From: Thermoanaerobaculia bacterium
Lineage (GTDB): Bacteria; Acidobacteriota; Thermoanaerobaculia; Multivoradales; JAGPDF01
Assembly (NCBI GenBank): GCA_039932315.1
Contig: JBDTQG010000005.1
Span: 21,186-85,185, forward strand
Direction: 5' to 3'
DNA length: 64,000 bases
The stretch's first letter is position 1. Every line of letters starts with the position of its first letter. Positions 1,651 through 14,197 of the stretch are shown here, one piece after another. The notes under the pieces were generated by a model, which ran no database searches, was not told the DNA's origin, and was given only the letters and a program-made list of their open reading frames with translations. The position numbers were made by a program, and so were the translations under genes.

Positions 1651-3084
1651 ATGAAGAGGTCCACGATCGTCGGCGGCAGCCTCTTCGGGATGGTCGCGCT
1701 GATCTCGCTGATCTCGCTGATCTCGCTGATCATCCACAACAACGTCCGCCCTGAGGTCCGCCATGAAGTCCGCGAAGAGAGTCGCGACGGTGTCGCTCCG
1801 GCTCCGCTCGTCGCGACGCCGAAGGCCTCATCGCCGGGAGAGCATCCGGTGGAATCTTCGGGAATCCTCTTCGGCCGCATCACGACCGTCGACGGAGGCC
1901 GCTATGAAGGCCGGTTGCGATGGGCTGGCGATGACGAGGCGTACTGGAGTCACACTTTCAACGGCAAGAAAGCCGAGAACCGTTGGGCCGCGGAGGTCCC
2001 GGCCGGGCGCCTGCCCAGGGTCTCCACGCCGATCCGGATCTTCGGTGTCCAGATCGCCCACCGCGAGCACCTGCTCGATATGGACCGGCTCTTTTTCGTG
2101 CACTTCGGCGACATCGCGCGGATCGATGCGCTCGGAATCCGGGTCCGTCTGACGCTGAAGAGCGGGATGAAGGTCGATCTCGACCGGCTCGAGGCGAGTG
2201 ATTTCGACGATGGCATCCGGGTGTGGGACGGCACGCGCGGCGTCGTCGATCTCGACAGCTCGCGGATCCGCGTCATCGAATTTCTGCCGACACCTGCGCT
2301 CGGAGACGCCGAGGTTCCGGTGCGGCTTTACGGCTCGGTACGCGCCCGGGCGGGCAAGTTCACCGGCTTCGTGCAGTGGAACCGGCAAAACGGCGCCGGC
2401 AGCGACGAGCTCGTGGGGCGTAGCGACGACGGAGAAGTCCGCCCGCGCTTCGACTCGATCCGTTCGATCGTCCGGCGTTCCCCGGCGACCTCTCTCGTGA
2501 CGTTTCGCGACGGGCGCGAGACCGTGCTCTCCGGAACGCGAGCCGTCGGCGAGGGAAATCGCGGCGTCTACGTCGACGACGATCGATACGGACGCGTCAG
2601 TGTCTCGTGGGATGCGTTCGAAAGCATCGACTTCGGAGCGGTTGCACCGTCCGATACCGGTCCGGCTTACGCCGATTTCCCGCCCGGCCGTGCGCTCTCC
2701 GGCAGCGTCACGACCCGCGACGGTCGCCACCTCGCCGGTCGCCTCGTCTACGACCTCGACGAGAGCGAAACCACCGAGACTCTCGATGCCCCCGCACACG
2801 GTGTGGACTTCTCGATCCCTTTCGGCCGCATCGTCAGCATCGCGCTGCCGGATCCCGACGACCACAGCGACCTGCACGCGATGGTGACACTGGACAGTGG
2901 AGAAGCGCTGCAGCTCGAGCTCGGAGGCGACCTCGGGCCGAAAAACGGCGGCCTGCTGATCTTCGCCGACGGCGCGTCGTCGCCGGAGTACCTCGCCTGG
3001 AGCGAAATCCGGAGGATCGACTTCGACCGATCGCCGGACTCTGGCGGCATGCGGGGCGCGCCGTCGCCTTCGATGTCAAAATAG
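1651..3084 (+). CDS. membrane-anchored internal-repeat protein, unknown function
   Basis: 477-aa ORF with an N-terminal hydrophobic anchor (VALISLISLISLII). Repeated beta-rich units follow (FGRITTVDGGRYEGRLRW / YGSVRARAGKFTGFVQW / SGSVTTRDGRHLAGRLVY, each followed by F-x-x-I-x-x-I-like strands). The antisense 349-aa ORF is judged a shadow. Confidence 0.6.
   Translation: MKRSTIVGGSLFGMVALISLISLISLIIHNNVRPEVRHEVREESRDGVAPAPLVATPKASSPGEHPVESSGILFGRITTVDGGRYEGRLRWAGDDEAYWSHTFNGKKAENRWAAEVPAGRLPRVSTPIRIFGVQIAHREHLLDMDRLFFVHFGDIARIDALGIRVRLTLKSGMKVDLDRLEASDFDDGIRVWDGTRGVVDLDSSRIRVIEFLPTPALGDAEVPVRLYGSVRARAGKFTGFVQWNRQNGAGSDELVGRSDDGEVRPRFDSIRSIVRRSPATSLVTFRDGRETVLSGTRAVGEGNRGVYVDDDRYGRVSVSWDAFESIDFGAVAPSDTGPAYADFPPGRALSGSVTTRDGRHLAGRLVYDLDESETTETLDAPAHGVDFSIPFGRIVSIALPDPDDHSDLHAMVTLDSGEALQLELGGDLGPKNGGLLIFADGASSPEYLAWSEIRRIDFDRSPDSGGMRGAPSPSMSK
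1697..1731 (+). repeat. 9-bp in-frame tandem repeat (cgctgatct, about 3.9 copies) encoding LISLISLISLI
   Basis: Read directly: cgctgatct cgctgatct cgctgatct cgctgatc. It lies inside the predicted membrane anchor of the 477-aa protein and is followed by a 12-bp periodic stretch encoding VRPEVRHEVREE. Confidence 0.9.
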
Positions 3085-3089
3085 ACTTC

Positions 3090-3545
3090 ATGGACGCCCA
3101 TCGACTCTCCGGCAGAGATCGCGACTTCCTTCTCGCTTTCGAAACCTGCGCCATCGCGCCGGGCGACTTCAGTCATGAAGCGCATGTGCGGATCGGGTAC
3201 TCGTACCTCGTGGAGAACGACGACGAGGCGGCCGTCGAGAAGATGCGTGCGGCGCTGCTGCACTTTCTCGCTCACCACGGCGTTCCGCGGGAAAAATTTC
3301 ACGAGACGCTCACCCGCGCCTGGGTGCTTGCGGTCCGGCATTTCATGAACCGGGGCGCGACCGCCTCTGCCGACGAGTTCATTGCCGCGAACCCGGAGCT
3401 TCTCGACAGCAGGATCATGCTCACGCACTATTCCGCGAGCGTGCTGTTCTCGCCCGACGCCCGCGCGGGATTCGTCGCTCCCGACATCCAGCCCATCCCA
3501 CCGCCGGACGAGCGGCGGCTTCCGGGTGCTGCGCCGAAATTCTGA
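3090..3545 (+). CDS. hypothetical protein
   Basis: ATG 3090 lies 5 nt after the TAG of the upstream same-strand gene. 151 aa with normal-looking composition; no family recognised by eye. Confidence 0.5.
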   Translation: MDAHRLSGRDRDFLLAFETCAIAPGDFSHEAHVRIGYSYLVENDDEAAVEKMRAALLHFLAHHGVPREKFHETLTRAWVLAVRHFMNRGATASADEFIAANPELLDSRIMLTHYSASVLFSPDARAGFVAPDIQPIPPPDERRLPGAAPKF

Positions 3546-3571
3546 TCCGTTCCGCGGATCGAGGAGGGCCC

Positions 3572-4237
3572 ATGAGCTTCCGTCTGGTCGCGCTCTTGAC
3601 ACTCGTGGCAAGCACCGGCGTCGCGCAGGAGCAGATCCTGGCGGTCGAGGACGAGCCGAATCACCGGCTGATCTTCAGGAACGAGTACCTGCAGGCCTTC
3701 CGGGTCACGCTCTCTCCCGGCGCCTCGAGTCTCATGCACACGCACAGGCACGACGATGTTGCGGTGCGGTTGAGCGATGCCACCATGACAGCCGAGGTCC
3801 CGGGACAGCCCGCCGCGGCGCCGCAGCCTTTCCGGCTCGGCATCGTTTCCGCGCGAGACAACGAGGCGAAGCCCTTCACTCATCGCATGCACAACATCGG
3901 GACGACGCCGTTCGACGTCGTCGATGTCCAGATCATGAGCCGCCCTGTGGGCGCGGAGAGCCCGCCCATCGCGGAGGCCGCGGCCGAGAACCCGAAGATG
4001 CGCGTCTACCGGTACGAGCTCGCACCCGGCGCCAGCAGCCCGCAGCACACGTATTCGCGCCCCTATCTCCTCGTTGCGGCGACGGCGGCGCATCTTCGCA
4101 TCGCTTTGCCCGGCGGGAAGGCGATCGATCAGCCGCTCGACGCGGGGGACCTTCACTGGGTCGCCGATCCGGTGACCCACAGCTACACGAATCAAGGTGC
4201 TGCCCGAGCGATCTTCGTCGAGATCGAGCTCAAGTAG
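3572..4237 (+). CDS. secreted cupin-domain protein
   Basis: Signal-peptide-like N-terminus (LVALLTLVASTGVAQ). His-rich beta-strand motifs (MHTHRHDD, HRMHNIG, QHTY) suggest two cupin-like halves. Confidence 0.6.
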   Translation: MSFRLVALLTLVASTGVAQEQILAVEDEPNHRLIFRNEYLQAFRVTLSPGASSLMHTHRHDDVAVRLSDATMTAEVPGQPAAAPQPFRLGIVSARDNEAKPFTHRMHNIGTTPFDVVDVQIMSRPVGAESPPIAEAAAENPKMRVYRYELAPGASSPQHTYSRPYLLVAATAAHLRIALPGGKAIDQPLDAGDLHWVADPVTHSYTNQGAARAIFVEIELK

Positions 4238-4401
4238 CAGCGGTCCTGGCCGAGAGGTGTACGGAAGCAATCGCAGCGTTCGACCGTAGGGAGCGTATGG
4301 AGGGGCGAGGACATGTTCCGATGCTGCCCTTGAAGAGTGTGTCGGCGGGCGTGGACTTCGATCGCGAGACCTGACTTCACGCGGCGAGATGCCCGGCGGA
4401 A

Positions 4402-5145
4402 CTATGCCGGAGACTCGAGGAGCACTTCGTCGTCGAGCGCGACACGGCCCGGCTCGACCGTCGAACCGTAGACACCGACACAGCCCTGACGTTCCTGGGC
4501 CACGTGACGCAGGATCGCCGGATTGCGTTCCATCGTCACCGGATCGATCGTGATGATGACGCAGCGACCGTCGCGTTTGTCGATGCGAAAGCGCAGCCCG
4601 CCGATGCGCAGAACAGCTCCGACCCAGCCGTCTTCGAGGAACGGAGCGTCGACGCTGGATTCGACGAGGAAGTTCGGGCGGAAGCGCTGGACGTCGAGCG
4701 GGGAACCCCCCAATTCGCGGATCGATCGGCCGATCCGGTCGAGCGTCTGAGTCGTGACGAGAGAGAGCGGAAAGGTGTCGAAAATGCCGCGGTCCTGTCG
4801 GATGACGGCGGCTCCGCCGGGGCTGAGCTCTTCGGCGAGGGCCGGATCGGTGACCTCGAATCGCGCGCCTCGCGGAGTGCAGACGACGGTCGGCGAGGAG
4901 TCGGGTCGCGCCGGATCGGTGAAGACCGCGCGGTAGTGACTCATGTCGGCACGGTCCCGGATCGTGAGCCAGGGGAAGCCACTCTGCGGGACGCCGCGAC
5001 GAACGAACGCCCATCGACGATCGCCGGCGAGGCCGTGCCACGAGACATCCACCTCGGTCAGCGGTTCCGCCGCCATCGATTTGACGGGATATCGCCACAA
5101 ACCTACGACACGTCCGATCCGCTGGGTGTTTCGGGATCCGTCCAT
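4402..5145 (-). CDS. MOSC domain-containing protein
   Basis: VVGLWRYPVKSM at the N-terminus (MOSC_N beta-barrel signature). DGRCVIITIDPVT carries the conserved Cys, and the GCVGVYG tail is typical of MOSC. Confidence 0.8.
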   Translation of the reverse strand: MDGSRNTQRIGRVVGLWRYPVKSMAAEPLTEVDVSWHGLAGDRRWAFVRRGVPQSGFPWLTIRDRADMSHYRAVFTDPARPDSSPTVVCTPRGARFEVTDPALAEELSPGGAAVIRQDRGIFDTFPLSLVTTQTLDRIGRSIRELGGSPLDVQRFRPNFLVESSVDAPFLEDGWVGAVLRIGGLRFRIDKRDGRCVIITIDPVTMERNPAILRHVAQERQGCVGVYGSTVEPGRVALDDEVLLESPA

Positions 5146-5450
5146 GGAGCCACCTCGGGGGAGGCGCCCTTACCCTTCGAACCTGCATCGAGCGTGGCGG
5201 ACCGGGTCCGCTGCAGCGCCTCTCGACGGAGGGTGTGCGCCGCCGGCGGCAGCGCTACGGAGCAAGAAACGGAGCAGAACAGGAATGGCGCTCGTCGTCA
5301 ACGGGCGGCGGCGATGCCGATCGCCCGACAAGGGCATTCGAGACGGTCAGAGCCATGACGAACGGGAGTTGCGTCCGCGGGCAGGGGACCGCATGATCCT
5401 CGCGTCCGCTGCACGGCTTTCGTCGCCGGACTTCCACCCGAGGATTGCGC

Positions 5451-5888
5451 ATGTCCCGAGAAATCGTTTTTACGGAGAAGGCTCCGAGGCCGCCGGCCAC
5501 CTACAGTCAGGCGGTCAAGGCTGCGGGACTCGTCTTCGTTTCCGGCACGGGACCCCACGATCCTGCGACCGGACTCATCGAAGGCGCGACGATCCAGGAG
5601 CAGACCCGGCAATGTCTGACGAACATCTCGGCCATTCTGGCGGCGTCCGGGAGTGGCATGGATGAGATCGTCAGCGCCACGGTCATCCTTGCGGACGAGG
5701 AAGAGTTCGCCGGGATGAACGAGGAGTGGCTGCGGTGGTTTCCGGAGCGTCCGCCGGCCCGCCAGGGCGCGAAGCTGCCGGTGCGCATTCCGGGTTTGAA
5801 GATTTCGATCGCGGTGATCGGAAAGTGGGGAACGAGTGCTTCAGCCGTCGAAGGAAAGCCGGACGCCGCGCGCCCCGCAATCTCCTGA
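5451..5888 (+). CDS. RidA/YjgF family protein (second paralog)
   Basis: ATG 5451 within ORF 5445..5888. TEKAPRPPATYSQAVKAAGLVFVSGTGPHDP...IQEQTRQCLTNISAIL is a classic RidA N-terminal pattern. Confidence 0.8.
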   Translation: MSREIVFTEKAPRPPATYSQAVKAAGLVFVSGTGPHDPATGLIEGATIQEQTRQCLTNISAILAASGSGMDEIVSATVILADEEEFAGMNEEWLRWFPERPPARQGAKLPVRIPGLKISIAVIGKWGTSASAVEGKPDAARPAIS

Positions 5889-5928
5889 GCTCTTCACGAG
5901 AGACGACGAAGGATCTACCGGAGACTTC

Positions 5929-6345
5929 ATGCCCAGAACGTCCGCGGTCCACTCGAGCGTCCATCGCATCCGGTTTTCGGATCTCGATCCCTACAAACAC
6001 ATGCGCACGGCCATGTACGGGGCGTACTACGTCGACCACCGGATGAGCGCGTTGCGCGAGCAGGCCGGGTGGGATCTGAAGACGCTGGAGAGCCTCCCGT
6101 TCATGACCTTCGTGAAACGTCTCGACATCGAGTTCCTCCGGCCGGTTGTCGGCGACCAGGAGATCCGCATCACCTCCTGCGTCGATCGCTTCGACGGCCC
6201 GGATGCCATCATCGAGTGCACGATGGCGGACGAAAAGGGAAGAGCGTCGTCCCGGTGCCACATGGTCGTTTCGTATGTCGACCGCGGAACCGGTCGATCC
6301 GCCGATTGGCCGGCTGCCGTCGCCGACCTCTTCTTCACTAGCTGA
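5929..6345 (+). CDS. hotdog-fold acyl-CoA thioesterase (4HBT-like)
   Basis: Internal ATG 5929. HRIRFSDLDPYKHMRTAMYGAYY resembles the 4HBT/YbgC active-site region. Size is about 138 aa. Confidence 0.65.
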   Translation: MPRTSAVHSSVHRIRFSDLDPYKHMRTAMYGAYYVDHRMSALREQAGWDLKTLESLPFMTFVKRLDIEFLRPVVGDQEIRITSCVDRFDGPDAIIECTMADEKGRASSRCHMVVSYVDRGTGRSADWPAAVADLFFTS

Positions 6346-6357
6346 CAGCGGCGCTTC

Positions 6358-6438
6358 GCGGTCATCGCGGTCATCGCGGTCATCGCGGTAGCCGCGGTCA
6401 TCGCGGTAGTCGCGGTCATCGCCGTCGTCGCCGTCACC
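6358..6438. repeat. intergenic 9-bp tandem repeat, 9 units (gcggtcatc consensus)
   Basis: Units read directly: gcggtcatc x3, gcggtagcc, gcggtcatc, gcggtagtc, gcggtcatc, gccgtcgtc, gccgtcacc. It lies between the thioesterase stop (6345) and the GT2 start candidates (6447/6471). Confidence 0.95.
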
Positions 6439-6470
6439 GCTCGACCGTGTTGGGCTACGATCCGCGACTC

Positions 6471-7196
6471 ATGCACTCATCGCGACCGGAATGCCTCTGG
6501 CTAGTGATGCCGGTCTTCAACGAAGAGGCCTCGATCGAACGGGTCCTCGCCGAATGGTTGCCGGCGCTCCGGGAAGCGGTTGGCGTCGATCTGCGGGTCC
6601 TGGCGATCAACGACGGCAGCCGCGACCGCACGCTCGAAAAGCTGCGTGCGATCGAGCGGGCCAATCCGGAAGTCACGGTGCGCGACCAGGCGAACGCCGG
6701 ACACGGCGCCTCCTGCATCGCGGGATATCGCCTCGCACTCTCGTCGGGCGCCGACTGGGTGCTGCAGATCGACTCCGACGGCCAGTGCGATCCGCGTTAC
6801 TTCGCCGCGTTCTGGGAAGCTCGCCGCAACGCGCCCGTGATCTTCGGCTACCGCGTGCGCCGCGACGACGGCTGGAGTCGCTGGGCGATCTCGCGTGTCG
6901 TGAGTCTGGTGAGCTGGCTCGCAGCGGGGATCTGGGTCGGAGACGCCAACGTGCCGTACCGCCTGATGCGCGCTGCCGAGCTGTCCCGGGCCGTGGAGGC
7001 GATGCCGGCGGACATTCAACTCGCGAACGTTCTCATCGCCTTGCGCTTGCAGCGCGCACCGGGAATCGCTTGGATCCCGATCCGGTTCCGCGAACGCCAC
7101 GGCGGCACGCCGTCGATCCGCGCCGGATCGTTCGCGCACCAGGGCCGGCTCCTCTACCGGCAGCTGCGCGCGGAGCGCCGTCGTGTCCCGACCTGA
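6471..7196 (+). CDS. family 2 glycosyltransferase, short DPM1/GtrB-catalytic-domain-like
   Basis: LWLVMPVFNEE, INDGSRDRT and QIDSDGQ fit the GT-A/GT2 pattern. No clear TM helices. Start is uncertain (GTG 6447, ATG 6471); ATG 6507 would truncate the first beta strand. Confidence 0.8.
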   Translation: MHSSRPECLWLVMPVFNEEASIERVLAEWLPALREAVGVDLRVLAINDGSRDRTLEKLRAIERANPEVTVRDQANAGHGASCIAGYRLALSSGADWVLQIDSDGQCDPRYFAAFWEARRNAPVIFGYRVRRDDGWSRWAISRVVSLVSWLAAGIWVGDANVPYRLMRAAELSRAVEAMPADIQLANVLIALRLQRAPGIAWIPIRFRERHGGTPSIRAGSFAHQGRLLYRQLRAERRRVPT

Positions 7197-8769
7197 GGGC
7201 TCCGGGCCGGAAGCGCAACCGGGATTGGCGCTCACCGCGCTCGCGCTCGGTTACCTCGCCCTGCCGCTCGTGCTCTTCGTCGTCGGCTGGCTTCGTCTTT
7301 CGGTGGCGTTGCCGCTCCTCGCGCTCATGGCCGCGACGGGCTGGAGTCTGCGCGACGAGCTTGCCCGCCGTGTCCCGCTCCGGAAGCGCCAGGCGATCGT
7401 CTTCGGCATCGTGGCCGTGCTGTGGGTGGCGCTTTCCGGAGTGAGCGGTCTCGGGCACCGGAACCCGGACTGGGCCAAGCACGACTCGGTCCTCAAGGGC
7501 ATCGTGGAGCAGAGCTGGCCGGTCGTCTACGACATGACGGCGCCGGGGATCGAAGGTCATCGCCACGGCCTCGTCTTCTACCTCGCCTACTACCTCCCTG
7601 CCGGCGCCATCGGCAAGCTTCTCGGTTGGCAGGCCGCGCTGATGGCTCTCGCGCTGTGGACGGCCGCAGGAATCTGGCTCGTTCTCAGCGCATTCTCGCG
7701 CCTCCTCGGCGGTTCACAGTTCGAAAGAGAACGCGCGGGGGAGGGTCCGGTCGCGGCGCCGGGCCGCACAGCGGCTCTGGCGACGTGCCTGTTCGTTTTC
7801 GCGAGCGGGCTCGACGCGGCCGGTTCATGGATTCGCAATGGTCACGGCTTCGCCATCACGGATCACCTCGAGTGGTGGGCCGGGATGTGGCAGTACTCGT
7901 CGAACACGACGCTGCTCTTCTGGGTGCCGCATCAGGCGCTTGCCGGCTGGCTGGCGACGGCGCTCCTTCTCGACGGACTGGATCGGGAAGGCGGCTCGCG
8001 CGCCGCGCCGGTTGTCGTGGCGGCGACACTTCTCTGGTCGCCGTTCGTTGCCCTGGGTTGTCTGCCGATGGCGAGCCTCGGCGTTCTCCGGTCGCGGCGC
8101 GATGCGCTGCGTTTCTGGCCGAACTGGTCGACGGTGCCGGCCATCGGCCTGCTGCTGGTTTTCTACTACAGCGCGCTGCAGCGGGAGCGACTGCCCGCAG
8201 CGCTCGACGCAAGGTTCATTTTCGGAGCGGGTGCAGGTCTCTTCGCACTCTTCGTCGTTCTCGAGTTCGGCGCGCTCTGGTGGCTTGTGCGCCCCGAGCG
8301 GAGCGGAACGGCTTCGCCGTGGATCTGGGGGGCGGTGGGTGGAGCGCTTCTCGTTCTACCCTTCTTCCGCCTGGGGTATTACAACGACTTCGTGATGAGG
8401 ACGTCGATCCCGGCGCTCTTCGCGCTTTGGGTGTTCACCGGCCGGGCGCTTCTCGACCGCGCTCGCGGAGCCTTTTCGCGTGCGGCGCTCCTGGTTCTCC
8501 TGGCGGGCGGCGCGATCACACCGGTCACCGAGATGGCGCGTGCACTCCACGGCTGGCGGCTCGTGCCGCCGACGCTCGCGGCGACACGCGACCTGCCTCT
8601 CGCCCACGCGAACGCCGAGCTCGCGCGGCAGTATCTCGCTCCGCTCGACGCCTTCTTTTTTCGCTATGCCGCCCGGCGCTCCGGCGATTTTCCGGCGGTC
8701 GACCGACCCGAGGGAACGGAGCTTCGGGGCGCTACCGGCTCGCCTGAACGCGCACCGGGGCCGCGGTGA
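7183..8769 (+). CDS. large polytopic membrane protein (candidate GT-C-type glycosyltransferase or polymerase)
   Basis: 528 aa with at least 10 hydrophobic helices. The GTG start overlaps the GT2 stop by 14 nt. No family recognised with certainty. Confidence 0.6.
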   Translation: MSRPEGSGPEAQPGLALTALALGYLALPLVLFVVGWLRLSVALPLLALMAATGWSLRDELARRVPLRKRQAIVFGIVAVLWVALSGVSGLGHRNPDWAKHDSVLKGIVEQSWPVVYDMTAPGIEGHRHGLVFYLAYYLPAGAIGKLLGWQAALMALALWTAAGIWLVLSAFSRLLGGSQFERERAGEGPVAAPGRTAALATCLFVFASGLDAAGSWIRNGHGFAITDHLEWWAGMWQYSSNTTLLFWVPHQALAGWLATALLLDGLDREGGSRAAPVVVAATLLWSPFVALGCLPMASLGVLRSRRDALRFWPNWSTVPAIGLLLVFYYSALQRERLPAALDARFIFGAGAGLFALFVVLEFGALWWLVRPERSGTASPWIWGAVGGALLVLPFFRLGYYNDFVMRTSIPALFALWVFTGRALLDRARGAFSRAALLVLLAGGAITPVTEMARALHGWRLVPPTLAATRDLPLAHANAELARQYLAPLDAFFFRYAARRSGDFPAVDRPEGTELRGATGSPERAPGPR

Positions 8770-9892
8770 GCACGCCGCGCATGCGATCGAAGGTCGAAAG
8801 CGCCTGCAGCATCGCCTGATCGGTGTTGATGTAGCGATAGCTCGCGAGCCGGCCGGTGAAGTAGACCTGCCGCTCCCGCTCCTCGCGCTCGGCGAGCTCT
8901 CGATAGAGCGCGAAGCGCGCCGCGCTTTCAGGCGCCGGGACGGGATAGAACGGCTCGCCGTCCGCCGCGGGGTACTCGTAGGTGACCACCGTGGTGGGCG
9001 CGCGCTGCGCCGTCACATGCTTGATCTCGACCGTGCGCGTGAAGGGCTCGTCCCCGGGATAGTTGATCTGCACGCAGGGCTGCGCATACTCGACATCGAG
9101 AGCCCGGTGCTCGAACCGCAGTGAGCGCCAGGGGAGCGGTCCGAGGCGGTTTTCGAAGTATTCGTCGAGAGGTCCGCAGTAAGCCGTTGCGAGCCGTGGG
9201 ACGACGGCCTGCCGGAGCTCGCGATAGTCGACCCCGAGTCGGATCTCGATTCGCGGATGGTCGAGCATCGCGCGGAACATCGCGGTATAGCCCGCTGCAG
9301 GCATCTGCTGGATCGGCGCATCGGCGTAGCGGTCGTCGCGATCGAACCGGACCGGGATCCTGCCGCACACGGAGGCATCGAGCTCGCGAGGCGGCCGGCC
9401 CCACTGCTTCTCCGTGTAGCCGAGATAGAAGGCTTCGTAAAGCTCTCTCCCGATTCTCGAGAGGACGAACTCTTCGGAATTTGCCGGATGCGGAATTTTC
9501 TCCGCGAGGCGCTGCAACAGGGCGCGCGCGCTCGTCTCCGTGAGCTCGCGGTGGAAGAATTTCTCGAGCGTCGTCAGGTTGATCGGAAACGGGTAGAGCT
9601 CGCCTCGGACAAGGCATTTCACGCGGTAGTTTCCCGGAATCCAGCCGGTGAAGCGGGAGAGGTAGGCGACGAGCGGCGCGTCGTCCGTCCGGAAGTAGTG
9701 CGGACCGTATTCGTGTCTCAGGAGGCCATTGCCATCGACCCGATCGAAGCAGTTTCCGGCGATGTGCTGCCGACGATCGATGACCAGAACGGAAAGACCG
9801 AGCTCCTCCGCCGCGCGTTCGGCGATGACGCAGCCGCTGGGTCCCGCGCCAACGACGAGTAGATCGTGAGTTGGTCGGATCGGGGAGCTCAT
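8732..9892 (-). CDS. glf: UDP-galactopyranose mutase
   Basis: FAD Rossmann motif DLLVVGAGPSGCV. YLGYTEKQWGRPPRELDASVCGRIPVRF and the C-terminal FTGRLASYRYINTDQA closely match remembered Glf sequences. Confidence 0.9.
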   Translation of the reverse strand: MSSPIRPTHDLLVVGAGPSGCVIAERAAEELGLSVLVIDRRQHIAGNCFDRVDGNGLLRHEYGPHYFRTDDAPLVAYLSRFTGWIPGNYRVKCLVRGELYPFPINLTTLEKFFHRELTETSARALLQRLAEKIPHPANSEEFVLSRIGRELYEAFYLGYTEKQWGRPPRELDASVCGRIPVRFDRDDRYADAPIQQMPAAGYTAMFRAMLDHPRIEIRLGVDYRELRQAVVPRLATAYCGPLDEYFENRLGPLPWRSLRFEHRALDVEYAQPCVQINYPGDEPFTRTVEIKHVTAQRAPTTVVTYEYPAADGEPFYPVPAPESAARFALYRELAEREERERQVYFTGRLASYRYINTDQAMLQALSTFDRMRGVLTAAPVRVQASR

Positions 9893-11714
9893 GCGGACGA
9901 AGAATCATAGACTCGCCGGCATGCCTTCGCTGCAATCGCTTTGGAGGGATTGGGCTCGACCGGCTGGAGGATTCGGCACCAACAGCCTGGCGGACGGCGC
10001 GATGTCGCTCGCTCTCCTGCTCGGGGTCGGGATGGTTCAGGGAGGGTTCCATTTTTCAGGATATTCCGCGCCCGCCGGTTTTCTGCTGCTCGGGTCGCTG
10101 TTCCTTCTGTCTCGCTCCCTGCTGCCGCTTTGGATCGGCACCGCCTTTGCGGCGCTTCTGGCGCGGATCCAGCCAATCGAAGGGTGGTCGGATCAGACAT
10201 TCGTCCAATTCTCGGCACTCGCGTCACTGCTCTCCGGTCACGGAATTTACGACCCTCACAGCGCTCTCGGTGTCTCGTGGAGCATCTATCTTCCGATGGC
10301 GGATCTTCTCGCGGCATTTCCGATCTGGTTTCTCGGAGCGAAGTTCTGGGTCTTCTTTCAGGTGGGTGTGGTTGCGATTCTGTCGCTGCCGTTCTTCGTT
10401 GCCCCCTCGCAGACGACCTTCCGTCTTTTCCTTGGGCTGGTCACGTTCGCTCCGTTTGCGGGCTTGACCGGCAAGGGCAGCGCGCTCGAGGTTTCCGTGG
10501 CGGTGCTGGTCGTCGGCTTCTGGCTCCTGCTGCGCGAACGGCACCTCTCTCTCGCTGCCGGATTGCTCGCTTACGGAGCGCTGCTGCGGCAGCCTTTGCT
10601 TTTCATCGTCCCTTTCGTCGGTCTGGCACTCGCCCGGCTGCGCGCCTGGCGAGCGCTCCTCGTATTTTCTGCGGTTCTGGTTTTCGGCGGTCTGGTCCAC
10701 GTTCTGCGCAATCCGATGGGCTTCTTCGCGGCGGCGTTCGGGATCTGGGCCGACTTCGCCGATCAGTGGTTTCAGATGAGGGGTAGGCAGGGGAACTTTT
10801 CGATCTCGAGCCTGCTCGCCTTCTTCGGTGATTCCGGCGCCGCAGACCGCGCCCGTCAACCCTTCTATCTGGTTGTCCTCGCTCTCGCTCTGTGCGGGCT
10901 GGCGATTGCCGCATGGCGTGGCCGTACGACGGAGAACGCGATTGCCTGCGCGATCGTTGCAACGCTGCTTGTGCACGTGCTGAACCGCGGTTTCGTTTTA
11001 TTTCACTACCTCGCGGCTGCGGCCATGCCTGCTTTCGCATTCGCCGGATGGAGCAAGCCTCTGGCGAGGCGCCCGCTTCCCGGCGAGCCCGCCGCTTCGG
11101 GACTCGAGGGAATGCTGGCTGCGGGGATAGGCAGCGCTCTGCTGATTCTTGTCGTGACGCCTCTCGTGCTTGCAGCGGTGGGCGAGGTCCGATCGTTCCG
11201 CGCTGCACCGGGCCCGCTCGTCGAGATCGTGTCGGTGCGCGAGGGCGATGAGGATCTCACGCCGTCGCTCCGGGCGCAGATGCGCTCCGCGACGGAGCTC
11301 GGAACTCTCGAATTGGTCGGGGCGGTGGAGCTCGACACTCACAAGGCGCTGGAGATCGGTCTCGCCTACCCGGCCCAGCCGGACGAGCTTGTGTTGCGCG
11401 GTGCGCGGATCGACGTCCGGGAGGTCGCAGGCGTCAATCTGGTGTATCCCAGCGAGCGCGAAGTGGTCGGCTTTCTCCGCTCCGGCCGGATCGAGGGATC
11501 CGCCGACGGCCGGGCCTGGCATTCGGTCGGGCGCTTCCGTACCGTCATCCACCCTTCGTTCTTTCCGACGCGGATTGAACTCGACACGCGGGGGGAGCCG
11601 GTCCGTTTTCTCCGCATCGTCGACGGACGGACCTGGTGGGGACAGAAGGAATGGATGTTCGGCGGGATCTCCGTGCACTCCCATCTGCCGGCTGCCCAGA
11701 TCAACCAGGAGTAG
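9891..11714 (+). CDS. polytopic membrane protein with C-terminal discoidin (F5/8 type C)-like domain; GT87/DUF2029-like candidate
   Basis: About 430 aa of TM helices, then a soluble beta-rich tail (GSADGRAWHSVGRF...VRFLRIVDGRTWWGQKEWMFGGISV) resembling a carbohydrate-binding discoidin domain. ATG 9891 overlaps the glf start codon head-to-head, so the true start may be downstream (for example the MPSLQ Met at 9921). Confidence 0.6.
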   Translation: MRTKNHRLAGMPSLQSLWRDWARPAGGFGTNSLADGAMSLALLLGVGMVQGGFHFSGYSAPAGFLLLGSLFLLSRSLLPLWIGTAFAALLARIQPIEGWSDQTFVQFSALASLLSGHGIYDPHSALGVSWSIYLPMADLLAAFPIWFLGAKFWVFFQVGVVAILSLPFFVAPSQTTFRLFLGLVTFAPFAGLTGKGSALEVSVAVLVVGFWLLLRERHLSLAAGLLAYGALLRQPLLFIVPFVGLALARLRAWRALLVFSAVLVFGGLVHVLRNPMGFFAAAFGIWADFADQWFQMRGRQGNFSISSLLAFFGDSGAADRARQPFYLVVLALALCGLAIAAWRGRTTENAIACAIVATLLVHVLNRGFVLFHYLAAAAMPAFAFAGWSKPLARRPLPGEPAASGLEGMLAAGIGSALLILVVTPLVLAAVGEVRSFRAAPGPLVEIVSVREGDEDLTPSLRAQMRSATELGTLELVGAVELDTHKALEIGLAYPAQPDELVLRGARIDVREVAGVNLVYPSEREVVGFLRSGRIEGSADGRAWHSVGRFRTVIHPSFFPTRIELDTRGEPVRFLRIVDGRTWWGQKEWMFGGISVHSHLPAAQINQE

Positions 11715-11740: not shown

Positions 11741-13252
11741 TCAGCCGAGGTGTTGTTGCTCTCTCCGCCCCGACCGCGCGCTTGTTGCCGCGGGTGCGAA
11801 CGCGGTGACTGAAGCGAGCGCTGCGAACATCAGTGAGGCGGAGGTGGCAAAAGTGACGCGCATTCCGAACGCGACAGCTGCAGGAGACGCCGACGAAATG
11901 TCTGACGCCGAAGACGCCCAGGCGAAGATCGCACCCAGACCCGCGGATCCGGTGATGAGTCCCAGGTTGCGCGAAAGGCTGAGAAGCGCGGAACGGACTC
12001 CGCGCTCGTCAGGATGTGAGCCGCGCAGGATGCTGGTGTTGTTGGCCGACTGGAAGAGAGCGTAGCTCGCCGCCATGACCGCGATCGGAGCGAGATAGCC
12101 GGCCATGCCGAATCGCGCCGGGAAGATCGCGAGAAGTGAAGCGCCCGCTCCGATGCCCCCGAGCCCGATGACGGTAGGCGTTCGAGTTCCGATGCGATCG
12201 ACGAGGCGACCGGCGGGAAGCCCGGCGATGGCGACGACGATCGGCCCCACCGAGATCGCGATTCCGACCATCGCCGTCCCGAGCCCCAGTGAGCGCGAGA
12301 GGTAAAACGGTCCGACGACCATCGTGGCCATCATCACGCTGGAGACGAGGCCGCTCAAGACGAGGCTGGAGCGCAAGGCGGAATCGCGGACCGTCGCCAG
12401 CCGCAGTAGCGGAGATCTGGATCTCGCTTCTACGATGAAGAAGAGGCGCACCCCCAACGCTGCGGTCGCCAGAAGTGCGGCAGCGGGCCAGCCGAATCGG
12501 GCTCGTCCGTACGTCAGCGCGAGAGCATAGGCGGCGAGCGCCGAAGCCAGCACGAGCGTGCCGCTGACATCGAAGCCCGCCCGGCCGTCGGGAGCTTTCC
12601 GCCTGCTGTCCGGAAGGAATCGCCGCGCGAGAAAGAGGGTGACGAGCCCCAGCGGAACGTTCACGAGGAAGATGCTCCGCCAGCCGAACGCTGCGACGAG
12701 GATGCCGCCGAGCGACGGGCCGAGCGTCGTGCCGATCGCGGACATGGTGCCCAGGAGTCCCACGGCGCTGCCGGTCCTCGCCGCCGGAACCGCTTCCGCA
12801 ACCATGGTCAAGGTGAGGGACATGAGAAGCGCGGCTCCGAGGCCCTGCAGGGCGCGCGCGGCGACGAGCAGCGCCAGCGACGGCGCGAGACCGCAAAGAA
12901 GCGAAGCAGCGGTGAAGAGTCCGATTCCCACGAGGAGAAGTCGGCGCTGGCCGAAGATGTCGCCGAGCCGCGCTGCGCCGACGATCAGGGCGGTGATCGA
13001 GAGGAGATAGGCGATGACGATCCACTGGACGCTCTCGAACGAGGCACCGAAACTCTGTTGCAGCGTCGGTAGACTGGAGTTCGCAATGCTGGTGTCGAGC
13101 GATGGCATCAGTAAGGAAAGCGAGAGGCTGGCGAGAGCCCCGCGGGTCGAAGATGGCGCAGCGCTAGGGGCGATGGTCTCGACATCCGGCGTGAAAGATC
13201 TATCCATGCCGAAACGATAGGCGCGATAGATGACTAGCGGAAGACGCGTCAT
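11741..13252 (-). CDS. MFS transporter, DHA2 (EmrB/QacA-like, 14-TM)
   Basis: 503 aa. LDTSIANSSLPTLQ and GRLGDIFGQRR motifs; about 14 hydrophobic segments. Confidence 0.85.
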   Translation of the reverse strand: MTRLPLVIYRAYRFGMDRSFTPDVETIAPSAAPSSTRGALASLSLSLLMPSLDTSIANSSLPTLQQSFGASFESVQWIVIAYLLSITALIVGAARLGDIFGQRRLLLVGIGLFTAASLLCGLAPSLALLVAARALQGLGAALLMSLTLTMVAEAVPAARTGSAVGLLGTMSAIGTTLGPSLGGILVAAFGWRSIFLVNVPLGLVTLFLARRFLPDSRRKAPDGRAGFDVSGTLVLASALAAYALALTYGRARFGWPAAALLATAALGVRLFFIVEARSRSPLLRLATVRDSALRSSLVLSGLVSSVMMATMVVGPFYLSRSLGLGTAMVGIAISVGPIVVAIAGLPAGRLVDRIGTRTPTVIGLGGIGAGASLLAIFPARFGMAGYLAPIAVMAASYALFQSANNTSILRGSHPDERGVRSALLSLSRNLGLITGSAGLGAIFAWASSASDISSASPAAVAFGMRVTFATSASLMFAALASVTAFAPAATSARSGRREQQHLG

Positions 13253-13300: not shown

Positions 13301-14197
13301 ATGTCGACTCCCGATCTCAATCTGCTTCGAACCCTGGCTGTCCTGCTGTCCGAGGGCAGTGTTGCGAAGGCAGGCCGGCGCCTGCGGCTCAGTCCTTCGG
13401 CGATGAGCCGGTCGCTGGCACGGCTGCGACTGGCGACCGGCGATCCCTTGCTGGTCAGGGCCGGGCGCGGCCTCGTGCCGACTCCGCGCGCGCTCGCCCT
13501 GCGGCAGCAGGTGGGTGCTCTCGTCGAGCAGAGCGACCAGGTGCTTCGACCGACGGAAAAGTTCGACCTCGGGACGCTTGTACGCACGTTCACCATGCGC
13601 TCCAGCGAGGGCTTCGTCGAGAACTTCGGAGCGGCGCTGCTCGCGCGCGTCGGCGAGCAGGCGCCCGGTGTTCGGCTGCACTTCATGCACAAGCCGGACA
13701 GGGACAGCACCCCGCTGCGCGACGGAACCGTCGATCTCGAGACCGGCGTCGTCGGAAGGTCGACGGGGCCCGAGCTGCGTGCGCAGGCGCTCTTCCGGGA
13801 TCGCTTCGTTGGCGTCGTTCGTGCGCGGCATCCCTTGAGCCGCGGCAAAGTGACACCCGCGCGCTATGGAGGCGGACGACACATATTCATTTCACGGAGA
13901 GATCTCGGTCGCGGGCCGATCGACGACGCCATTCGAGCGTCGGGACTCGAGCGGGAGATCGGCACGATGGTCGAGGGTTTTGCCGTCGCGCTCGCTCTCG
14001 CGCGGGAGACCGATCTGATCGCAACCGTTCCCGAACGGCACACCGGAAATCTGCGTTCCGGGATGCACACGTTTCCGCTTCCGGTCGTCGTGCCCGCGCT
14101 GACGGTTTCGCTGCTCTGGCACCCGCGTCTCGATGCCGATGCGGCCCATCGCTGGTTGCGTGCCTGCGTCCGGGAGGTCTGCATCTCTCAGAGCTGA
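13301..14197 (+). CDS. LysR family transcriptional regulator
   Basis: N-terminal wHTH (LNLLRTLAVLLSEGSVAKAGRRLRLSPSAMSRSLARLR) plus a LysR substrate-binding-length C-terminus. Divergent from the MFS gene with a 48-bp spacer. Confidence 0.9.
   Translation: MSTPDLNLLRTLAVLLSEGSVAKAGRRLRLSPSAMSRSLARLRLATGDPLLVRAGRGLVPTPRALALRQQVGALVEQSDQVLRPTEKFDLGTLVRTFTMRSSEGFVENFGAALLARVGEQAPGVRLHFMHKPDRDSTPLRDGTVDLETGVVGRSTGPELRAQALFRDRFVGVVRARHPLSRGKVTPARYGGGRHIFISRRDLGRGPIDDAIRASGLEREIGTMVEGFAVALALARETDLIATVPERHTGNLRSGMHTFPLPVVVPALTVSLLWHPRLDADAAHRWLRACVREVCISQS

Follow-up and report, generated by a model that had tools for sequence, protein, structure and literature searches.

A four-gene island at positions 6447–11714 of a 64,000-nucleotide stretch of a Thermoanaerobaculia bacterium genome (contig JBDTQG010000005.1; the whole stretch that was analyzed is hereafter called the window) is best read, at a probability that we put at roughly 60%, as a Gtr-like extracytoplasmic glycosylation system with galactofuranose (Galf) as its sugar, carried as polyprenyl-phosphate-Galf (polyprenyl-P-Galf). 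An earlier note on this DNA had reported four open reading frames (ORFs) and had proposed that polyprenyl-P-Galf could be made here and its sugar transferred in the periplasm. All four ORFs are present, and the proposal is now supported at the comparative-genomic level by the class of the family 2 glycosyltransferase (GT2), by its linkage to glf, and by the occurrence of GtrA-containing sets in relatives. The components are as follows:

6447–7196, plus strand: GT2 without transmembrane helices, 249 aa, matching PF00535
7183–8769, plus strand: 528-aa polytopic membrane protein, of a family without annotation
8732–9892, minus strand: glf, UDP-galactopyranose mutase, 386 aa, matching PF03275
9891–11714, plus strand: ~600-aa polytopic membrane protein, distantly GT87-like (probable start ATG 9921)
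11208..11714, plus strand: C-terminal domain of the ~600-aa protein (residues ~440–607), with a discoidin/CBM32 fold according to Foldseek

In the proposed pathway Glf, whose family assignment is clear, would turn UDP-galactopyranose (UDP-Galp) into UDP-Galf, and the GT2 would then place Galf on polyprenyl (undecaprenyl) phosphate at the cytoplasmic face to give polyprenyl-P-Galf, a step that we infer from the enzyme class of the GT2 and its tight linkage to glf. The lipid-linked Galf would pass to the periplasmic face, where two unrelated GT-C-type proteins, the 528-aa and the ~600-aa protein, would move it to a periplasmic acceptor while the CBM32-fold domain of the latter would hold the glycan; the fold of the proteins, their conserved aspartates in loops, and the gene neighborhood suggest this last step. 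We read both membrane proteins as transferases and neither as a flippase because each is found elsewhere as the only polytopic protein paired with such a GT2. A surface glycan, for example lipopolysaccharide (LPS) or exopolysaccharide, is the probable acceptor, and the two transferases possibly have different acceptors or linkages.

The GT2 matched PF00535 with E 1.9e-14 (54 bits, cut-off 23.3), and its best NCBIfam models were those of PgfS, ArnC, and PpgS. All seven PDB sequences that matched it at E ≤ 4.6e-6 were polyprenyl-phosphate glycosyltransferases, namely three ArnC, three entries of the GtrB homolog sll0501, and one Pyrococcus dolichyl-phosphate mannose synthase (DPMS), with alignments that reach residues 174–179 for ArnC/GtrB and cover residues 19–239 for DPMS. 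The NCBIfam model of GlfT1 reached E 0.008 only, and the protein thus groups with ArnC, GtrB, and DPMS and not with processive or cytoplasmic-acceptor enzymes, a distinction that the earlier note had asked after. The stretch IDSDGQCDP aligns with LDADLQNPP and IDADLQDPP of ArnC/GtrB, D109-S-D111-G-Q113 sitting on the DADLQ of both, and the segment YRVRRDDGWSRWAIS aligns with VRQNRQDSWFRKTAS of ArnC. The DxDxQ motif has been proposed as a hallmark of polyisoprenyl-phosphate glycosyltransferases within GT2 (PMC10821137). Across 13 GT2 orthologs (34–77% identity), the residues Q107, D109, D111, Q113, R136, R139, D141, R145, S149, D166, N168, P170, R172, L173, and R217 were invariant, and the motifs R..R.D..R and D.N.P.RL are, like DxDxQ, invariant across the subfamily. 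The sole hydrophobic stretch, a weak one at residues 146–165, would fit an amphipathic interface helix rather than a transmembrane helix, in agreement with the initial description of this protein as devoid of transmembrane helices; PpgS (~230–240 aa) and eukaryotic DPM1 likewise lack them. On these grounds and from the adjacency of glf and GtrA in relatives, the GT2, which would be 241 aa long if it starts at ATG 6471, is predicted to be a UDP-Galf:polyprenyl-phosphate galactofuranosyltransferase of the DPM1/GtrB/ArnC/PpgS type.

The assignment of Glf was straightforward, with matches to PF03275 (E 5.2e-64) and NAD_binding_8 (E 4e-17) and, as the best structure, the Deinococcus radiodurans UDP-galactopyranose mutase (3hdq, E 7e-106). 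Read by eye, the alignment with 3hdq keeps the substrate-binding stretches GYTxKQWG, R-I/V-P-x-R, RSL, YPV, and GRLAxYRYxNxDQ. Against the TIGR00031 equivalog the protein scored 293.2 bits, narrowly under the cut-off of 303.75. The gene is convergent to that of the 528-aa protein, as had been described, and the two 3' ends overlap by 38 nt (window 8732–8769); the corresponding overlap is 35 nt in a Thermoanaerobaculia metagenome-assembled genome (MAG; L082 9406–9440). The overlapped tail of the 528-aa protein is of low confidence in the structural model (predicted local distance difference test, pLDDT, ~50) and probably disordered.

The linkage between this GT2 family and glf was assessed in 80 metagenome loci that were chosen by the GT2 alone, many of them on short contigs. 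A prokaryote-type glf lay within 3 kb in 28 of the 80, mostly a few hundred bases away, and because this far exceeds the ~0.15% chance of finding a single-copy gene within 3 kb (estimated as 6 kb of a 4-Mb genome) we regard the linkage as real. By a crude count, an ORF of at least 300 aa with at least seven hydrophobic segments occurred within 1.5 kb in 40/80 loci, and 19/80 had both such an ORF and the nearby glf. Ten such polytopic partners tested comprised four DUF2298 proteins, one PMT_2 protein, and five without a Pfam match. Thirteen small co-directional membrane ORFs were also detected near the GT2s, and all ten of those tested were GtrA (PF04138, E 1e-19 to 1e-26), with glf in seven of these ten loci. 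Relatives carry complete sets of GtrA, GT2, Glf, and a polytopic protein, and a variable, interchangeable membrane partner beside a conserved synthase is the pattern of Gtr systems.

The arrangement of GT2, 528-aa-like gene, and convergent glf was also observed in the Thermoanaerobaculia MAG mentioned above (L082/L083; 65%, 52%, and 71% identity) and on two metagenome contigs (L095, L096), and the three genes occur together in a MAG labeled delta proteobacterium (L019), in Smithella (L030/L065), and in an Obscuribacterales MAG (L064). L084, the locus most closely related to the island, lacks a 528-aa gene; its GT2 is 75% identical, its Glf 83%, and its ~600-aa protein 65%, the genes of the latter two lying head-to-head. 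Directly upstream of its GT2 (L084 1374–2711) lies a secreted 445-aa protein without a Pfam match, the sequence of which resembles a right-handed beta-helix (pectate-lyase-like) and which might be a glycan-processing partner. In a genome of the same phylum (G041), glf and the GT2 are followed by a 526-aa polytopic protein of a third family, which a PMT_2/STT3-type GT-C adjoins. A relationship of this third partner type (P0093) to the 528-aa or the ~600-aa family was rejected as not significant, the alignments merely joining Asp-loop regions. The island is patchy, with a GT2 ortholog (E ≤ 1e-40) in 3 of 301 genomes of the phylum and in none of the same family or order, a distribution that suggests horizontal spread.

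The 528-aa protein matched no Pfam and no NCBIfam family, and the 35 members of its own family gave a single PMT_2 match (E 0.0017) and nothing recurrent against Pfam. The AlphaFold2 model built from these 35 sequences was of high confidence (pLDDT 90.2; predicted TM-score, pTM, 0.91) and has ~13 helices, consistent with the at least 10 transmembrane helices first noticed. In a Foldseek comparison with the PDB, the high-probability matches were exclusively GT-C enzymes that use polyprenyl-phosphate sugars: ALG12 (0.99), AftB (0.97), EmbC (0.82), and PimE (0.77). Transporters in the same list had probabilities below 0.2 and TM-scores of ~0.1, every E-value in it was above 0.01, and no transporter, WaaL, or SEDS fold matched meaningfully. 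The fold classification that had been called for leans toward GT-C, the sole meaningful fold and neither a transporter nor WaaL, with the reservation that the matches are weak and that no sequence family backs them. D96 is invariant in the 35 sequences, as are D402 and R406 within an NDFVMR motif (residues 401–406). The first large loop, which comes after the third helix and a +5 loop (residues 56–69), contains D96; by analogy it would fit the periplasmic catalytic Asp of GT-C enzymes, its sidedness being taken from the positive-inside rule only. Altogether, the 528-aa protein is predicted to be a GT-C-type transferase that uses a lipid-linked donor.

The coupling of this gene to the GT2 depends on its start codon. 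The 14-nt overlap described earlier holds if translation starts at GTG 7183; homologs start near residue 15–17, and a start at TTG 7225 would replace the overlap by a 28-nt gap. Relatives show a 15-nt gap or an overlap of 1 or 4 nt between the GT2 and 528-aa-like genes, and the two proteins are fused in P0045, which keeps QIDSDGQCDP, and in the Smithella loci L030/L065. Relatives of the 528-aa protein were found at no fewer than 559 loci in species-representative genomes whose records are labeled as many phyla, the closest homolog in a named genome record being in a MAG labeled Thermoanaerobaculia (L002). Among 80 loci of the family, a profile-matching GT2 lay within 3 kb in 22 and GtrA in 7; in Tropicimonas (L048) GtrA starts 3 nt downstream of the 528-aa-family gene, and the corresponding gene of Ruegeria (L014) is 1.3 kb away from an operon of GT2 and GtrA. 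Clustering of the neighbors at these 80 loci revealed no universally kept partner, the contexts including NeuB, DegT, kinases, and SecA. At L043, L049, and similar loci (MAGs labeled Gammaproteobacteria or proteobacterium), the surroundings of the family gene include NeuB, a DegT-type aminotransferase, and a NUDIX protein; these are nonulosonic-acid/aminosugar genes, and the 528-aa family may therefore use non-Galf donors.

The ~600-aa protein, which lies head-to-head with glf as had been noted, is very rare in databases: a word-indexed search through 5.8 billion proteins gave 8 matches, and a full hidden Markov model (HMM) search of 1.84 billion representatives found 18 members, 13 of them at E ≤ 1e-30. 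The sole Pfam family matching its membrane part was GT87 (PF09594; E 0.0095, 16.1 bits, profile positions 3–234 of 237), which was also matched by 4/16 family members (best E 1.3e-4). D101 is invariant in the family and lies in a W-x-D-Q...LLSGHGIY loop ~30 residues before the GT87-like region, a position that we take to be equivalent to that of the PimE catalytic Asp, likewise ~30 residues upstream. Homology between the ~600-aa and 528-aa families was rejected after a profile–profile comparison (probability 0.2). The Foldseek search with the ~600-aa model mainly picked up the C-terminal domain and was uninformative on the low-confidence membrane core, and a PDB profile search with the family matched the carbohydrate-binding region only (3hnm and 8ayr, weakly), with no match to PimE. 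We predict this protein to be a second GT-C-type transferase, distantly GT87-like.

The C-terminal ~160 aa of this protein matched discoidin/CBM32 folds with a Foldseek probability of 1.00 (best E 3.7e-4; target TM-score 0.5–0.68; the model is moderate there), and several of the matched structures were solved with galactose. The discoidin (F5/8 type C) tail proposed in the earlier note is in line with these fold matches, and the sequence matches stay under the Pfam threshold, F5_F8_type_C being matched by 7/16 family members with a best E of 0.0022. From the model, the domain is predicted to be a periplasmic glycan-binding module. Homologs conserve sequence upstream of the database-called start, and ATG 9921 would leave a 28-nt gap from glf, equal to that in L084.

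Within this intergenic stretch, an ATG of the ~600-aa ORF overlaps the glf start (CAT) as CATG both in the window (9890–9923) and in L084 (4736–4769), and a 14-nt block that the two share without mismatch, ATCATAGACTCGCC, lies in the 28 nt before the next ATG; conservation is lower in the coding DNA on either side, the entire alignment having a mean column identity of 81%. The block ATCATAGACTCGCC is a possible regulatory element common to both loci or may represent a -10-like TAGACT of a leaderless transcript. Members of the ~600-aa family also occur at L087–L089 (e.g., L087 6394–9761), where they follow a DxDxQ GT2 without transmembrane helices and an NAD-dependent epimerase/dehydratase-like protein (286–301 aa). 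The GT2 there (239 aa) carries IDGDGQ and aligns over its full length with the GT2 profile (E 4e-14), and the assembly that holds L087 (GCA_964481735.1) also holds the glf module L082. This module suggests another lipid-linked sugar pathway.

The nearest known counterpart is Gtr O-antigen glucosylation of Shigella, Salmonella, and phages, which consists of the flippase GtrA, the undecaprenyl-phosphate-glucose synthase GtrB, and a serotype-specific GT-C protein (Gtr*). As there, a polyprenyl-phosphate-class GT2 adjoins a variable polytopic GT-C-type protein, and the loci of relatives include GtrA. The island differs in that its sugar would be Galf from the adjoining Glf, in that its GT2 lacks the two C-terminal transmembrane helices of GtrB, in the lack of GtrA from the genome, and in having two unrelated GT-C-like proteins, neither of which reaches Pfam or NCBIfam thresholds. 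PpgS/Rv3779 (the mycobacterial polyprenyl-P-GalNAc synthase with its GT-C) and ArnC/ArnT follow the same logic of a GT2 that loads polyprenyl phosphate for a dedicated GT-C, although with another sugar, low GT2 identity (E 1e-8 to 1e-9), and unrelated GT-C partners. When set beside the GT87 enzyme PimE, a polyprenol-P-mannose-dependent mannosyltransferase, the ~600-aa protein matches nearly the whole GT87 profile, at a score below the Pfam cut-off, and has an invariant Asp upstream, but it also has extra N-terminal helices and the CBM32-fold tail. Lipid-monophosphate furanose donors that are used extracytoplasmically by GT-C proteins are found in the mycobacterial decaprenyl-P-arabinofuranose pathway (Emb/Aft) and in the three-component pentofuranose systems of Citrobacter youngae O1/O2, which involve GT136 (PMC11127046); unlike in the island, these donors come from phosphoribosyl pyrophosphate via UbiA-type phosphoribosyltransferases and a phosphatase/epimerase, with no nucleotide sugar or GT2 involved; they carry pentoses, and a MATE or SMR/GtrA-type protein serves as the flippase. 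Some of the GT-C enzymes of these systems end in a C-terminal carbohydrate-binding module, and the CBM32-fold tail has parallels in the carbohydrate-binding modules of EmbC, AftD, and GT136 (PMC11127046). What is special about the island is its two unannotated GT-C-like partners and the lack of a recognizable flippase.

Several observations weigh against the Gtr-like Galf system. We infer both the donor and the acceptor, and polyprenyl-P-Galf is without precedent, since no polyprenyl-P-hexofuranose was described in the literature searched; full-text searches likewise returned no description of a lipid-monophosphate (polyprenyl-P or undecaprenyl-P) Galf donor, in line with the view of the earlier note that such a pathway is uncharacterized in Gram-negative-type bacteria. 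The similarity of the GT2 to characterized polyprenyl-phosphate glycosyltransferases is modest (E ~1e-8), 52 of the 80 GT2 loci (many on short contigs) have no prokaryote-type glf within 3 kb, and the GT2 family may not be Galf-specific throughout. The 528-aa protein matches GT-C folds weakly (E 0.04–0.3, TM-score 0.33–0.42), and the PDB profile search with its family alignment returned nothing. For the ~600-aa protein, the model is mediocre (pLDDT 64, with a low-confidence transmembrane part), and the GT87 score lies under the Pfam gathering threshold (16.1 versus 25 bits), so that the classification check suggested at the outset gives a distant GT87 similarity. Finally, the GtrA-like flippase that the earlier note had suggested looking for elsewhere in the genome did not turn up: neither PF04138, with controls detected, nor a custom GtrA HMM gave a match in the 94%-complete assembly, and the cluster has no conserved flippase of another kind.

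Some of these points would be accommodated if the GT2 were an ordinary cytoplasmic galactofuranosyltransferase, GlfT1/GlfT2-like, that passes UDP-Galf to an acceptor linked to undecaprenyl diphosphate or to a glycolipid, with the membrane proteins acting as polymerase, ligase, flippase, or export partners. To our knowledge, all characterized Galf transferases, the bacterial ones among them, take UDP-Galf directly, in the cytoplasm or Golgi, and the faint GlfT1 match, the flippase-free genome, and the weakness of the GT-C fold evidence point the same way. We nevertheless consider this unlikely, as DxDxQ and the acceptor-side motifs are invariant and align with ArnC, GtrB, and DPMS, GtrA flippases adjoin members of the GT2 family, no WaaL, SEDS, or transporter fold was matched with meaningful probability, and the islands are without an initiating phosphoglycosyltransferase or other repeat-unit glycosyltransferases. 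It is quite unlikely that the GT2 makes a polyprenyl-P-sugar other than Galf (Galp, glucose, or an aminosugar) while Glf feeds an unlinked transferase or serves another nucleotide sugar: glf lies at most 419 nt away in seven of the nine metagenome loci with a full-length GT2 match of ≥43% identity (L098–L103, L105, L118, L157), it is single-copy and adjoined by no other Galf-transferase candidate, and the arrangement of three genes recurs in different phyla, the membrane partner being of three kinds. The 52 loci without a nearby glf would be explained by such a sugar, as would L094, where a GT2 of 48% identity has NTP-transferase, HAD, GT4, and Wzx genes instead, and the TIGR00031 score just below the equivalog cut-off.

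The division of labor between the membrane proteins could also differ, with the 528-aa protein as the flippase of the lipid-linked sugar and the GT87-like protein as the sole transferase. Tight coupling or fusion to the GT2 recalls the GtrA-like transmembrane domains on some dolichyl-phosphate mannose synthases, no other flippase was found, and L084 works without a 528-aa gene. Yet in L082, L095, and L096 the GT2 and glf have the 528-aa-like protein as the only polytopic product of the cluster, a genuine GtrA accompanies members of the 528-aa family in L048, L014, and L031, and transporter folds (probability <0.2, TM-score ~0.1) fall far behind GT-C folds (0.77–0.99), which makes this arrangement very unlikely.

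If the Gtr-like Galf system is real, a lipid-monophosphate Galf donor would be a new intermediate in bacterial glycobiology, the three-component glycosylation logic would be widened from hexopyranoses and pentofuranoses to a hexofuranose, and a function would be assigned to two membrane-protein families that lack annotation, of which one is widespread. Since Galf is antigenic and not found in mammals, how it gets onto surface glycans is relevant to predicting serotypes and to glycoengineering. A bolder version, in which polyprenyl-P-Galf is a real donor made by phylum-spanning GT2s without transmembrane helices and the 528-aa protein founds a new GT-C family using such donors, appears doubtful to us at present. 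As the GT2 and the 528-aa protein are fused or translationally linked and no GtrA is found in this genome, the pair might in this version carry out synthesis, translocation, and transfer in a coupled manner, with no need of a separate flippase; together with the GT87-like/CBM32 enzyme the pair might build or decorate a periplasmic galactofuranan, and analogy to inverting GT-Cs would allow linkages of the rare alpha-Galf type.

The source genome (4.05 Mb, 202 contigs) carries glf and the genes of the 528-aa and ~600-aa proteins each in single copy. It encodes LpxC and four Wzy_C-type proteins, and the organism is therefore taken to be an LPS-making diderm. The G+C content of the window is 64–70%, and real genes around the island were picked by frame-specific GC3 (G+C at third codon positions):

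4402–5145, minus strand: MOSC protein
5445–5888, plus strand: RidA
5836–6345, plus strand: thioesterase
6356..6440, no strand: 9-bp tandem repeat TCGCGGTCA, 9.4 copies, 81% matches, Tandem Repeats Finder score 107–121
11741–13252, minus strand: DHA2-type major facilitator superfamily (MFS) transporter
13301–14197, plus strand: LysR regulator

As the flanking genes are unrelated and of housekeeping type, the four genes form a small island outside any large polysaccharide locus. The DHA2-type MFS transporter was considered as a flippase and rejected, since it resembles a drug-efflux protein, has the LysR-family gene as its neighbor, and is no conserved feature of the related loci. A minus-strand ORF at 3428–5188 (586 aa) was discarded as an Arg-rich antisense artifact. 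A sigma-70 promoter scan gave no site, and terminator-like matches were not above background. The tandem repeat TCGCGGTCA occupies the gap from the thioesterase stop to the GT2 start and is a possible regulatory or phase-variable element, its membership of the system being uncertain, and a change in its copy number might alter expression of the glycosylation operon. Farther upstream, at 1651–3084 of the window, lies a 477-aa protein without a Pfam match, which combines an N-terminal anchor with LIS repeats and a repetitive, beta-rich ectodomain.

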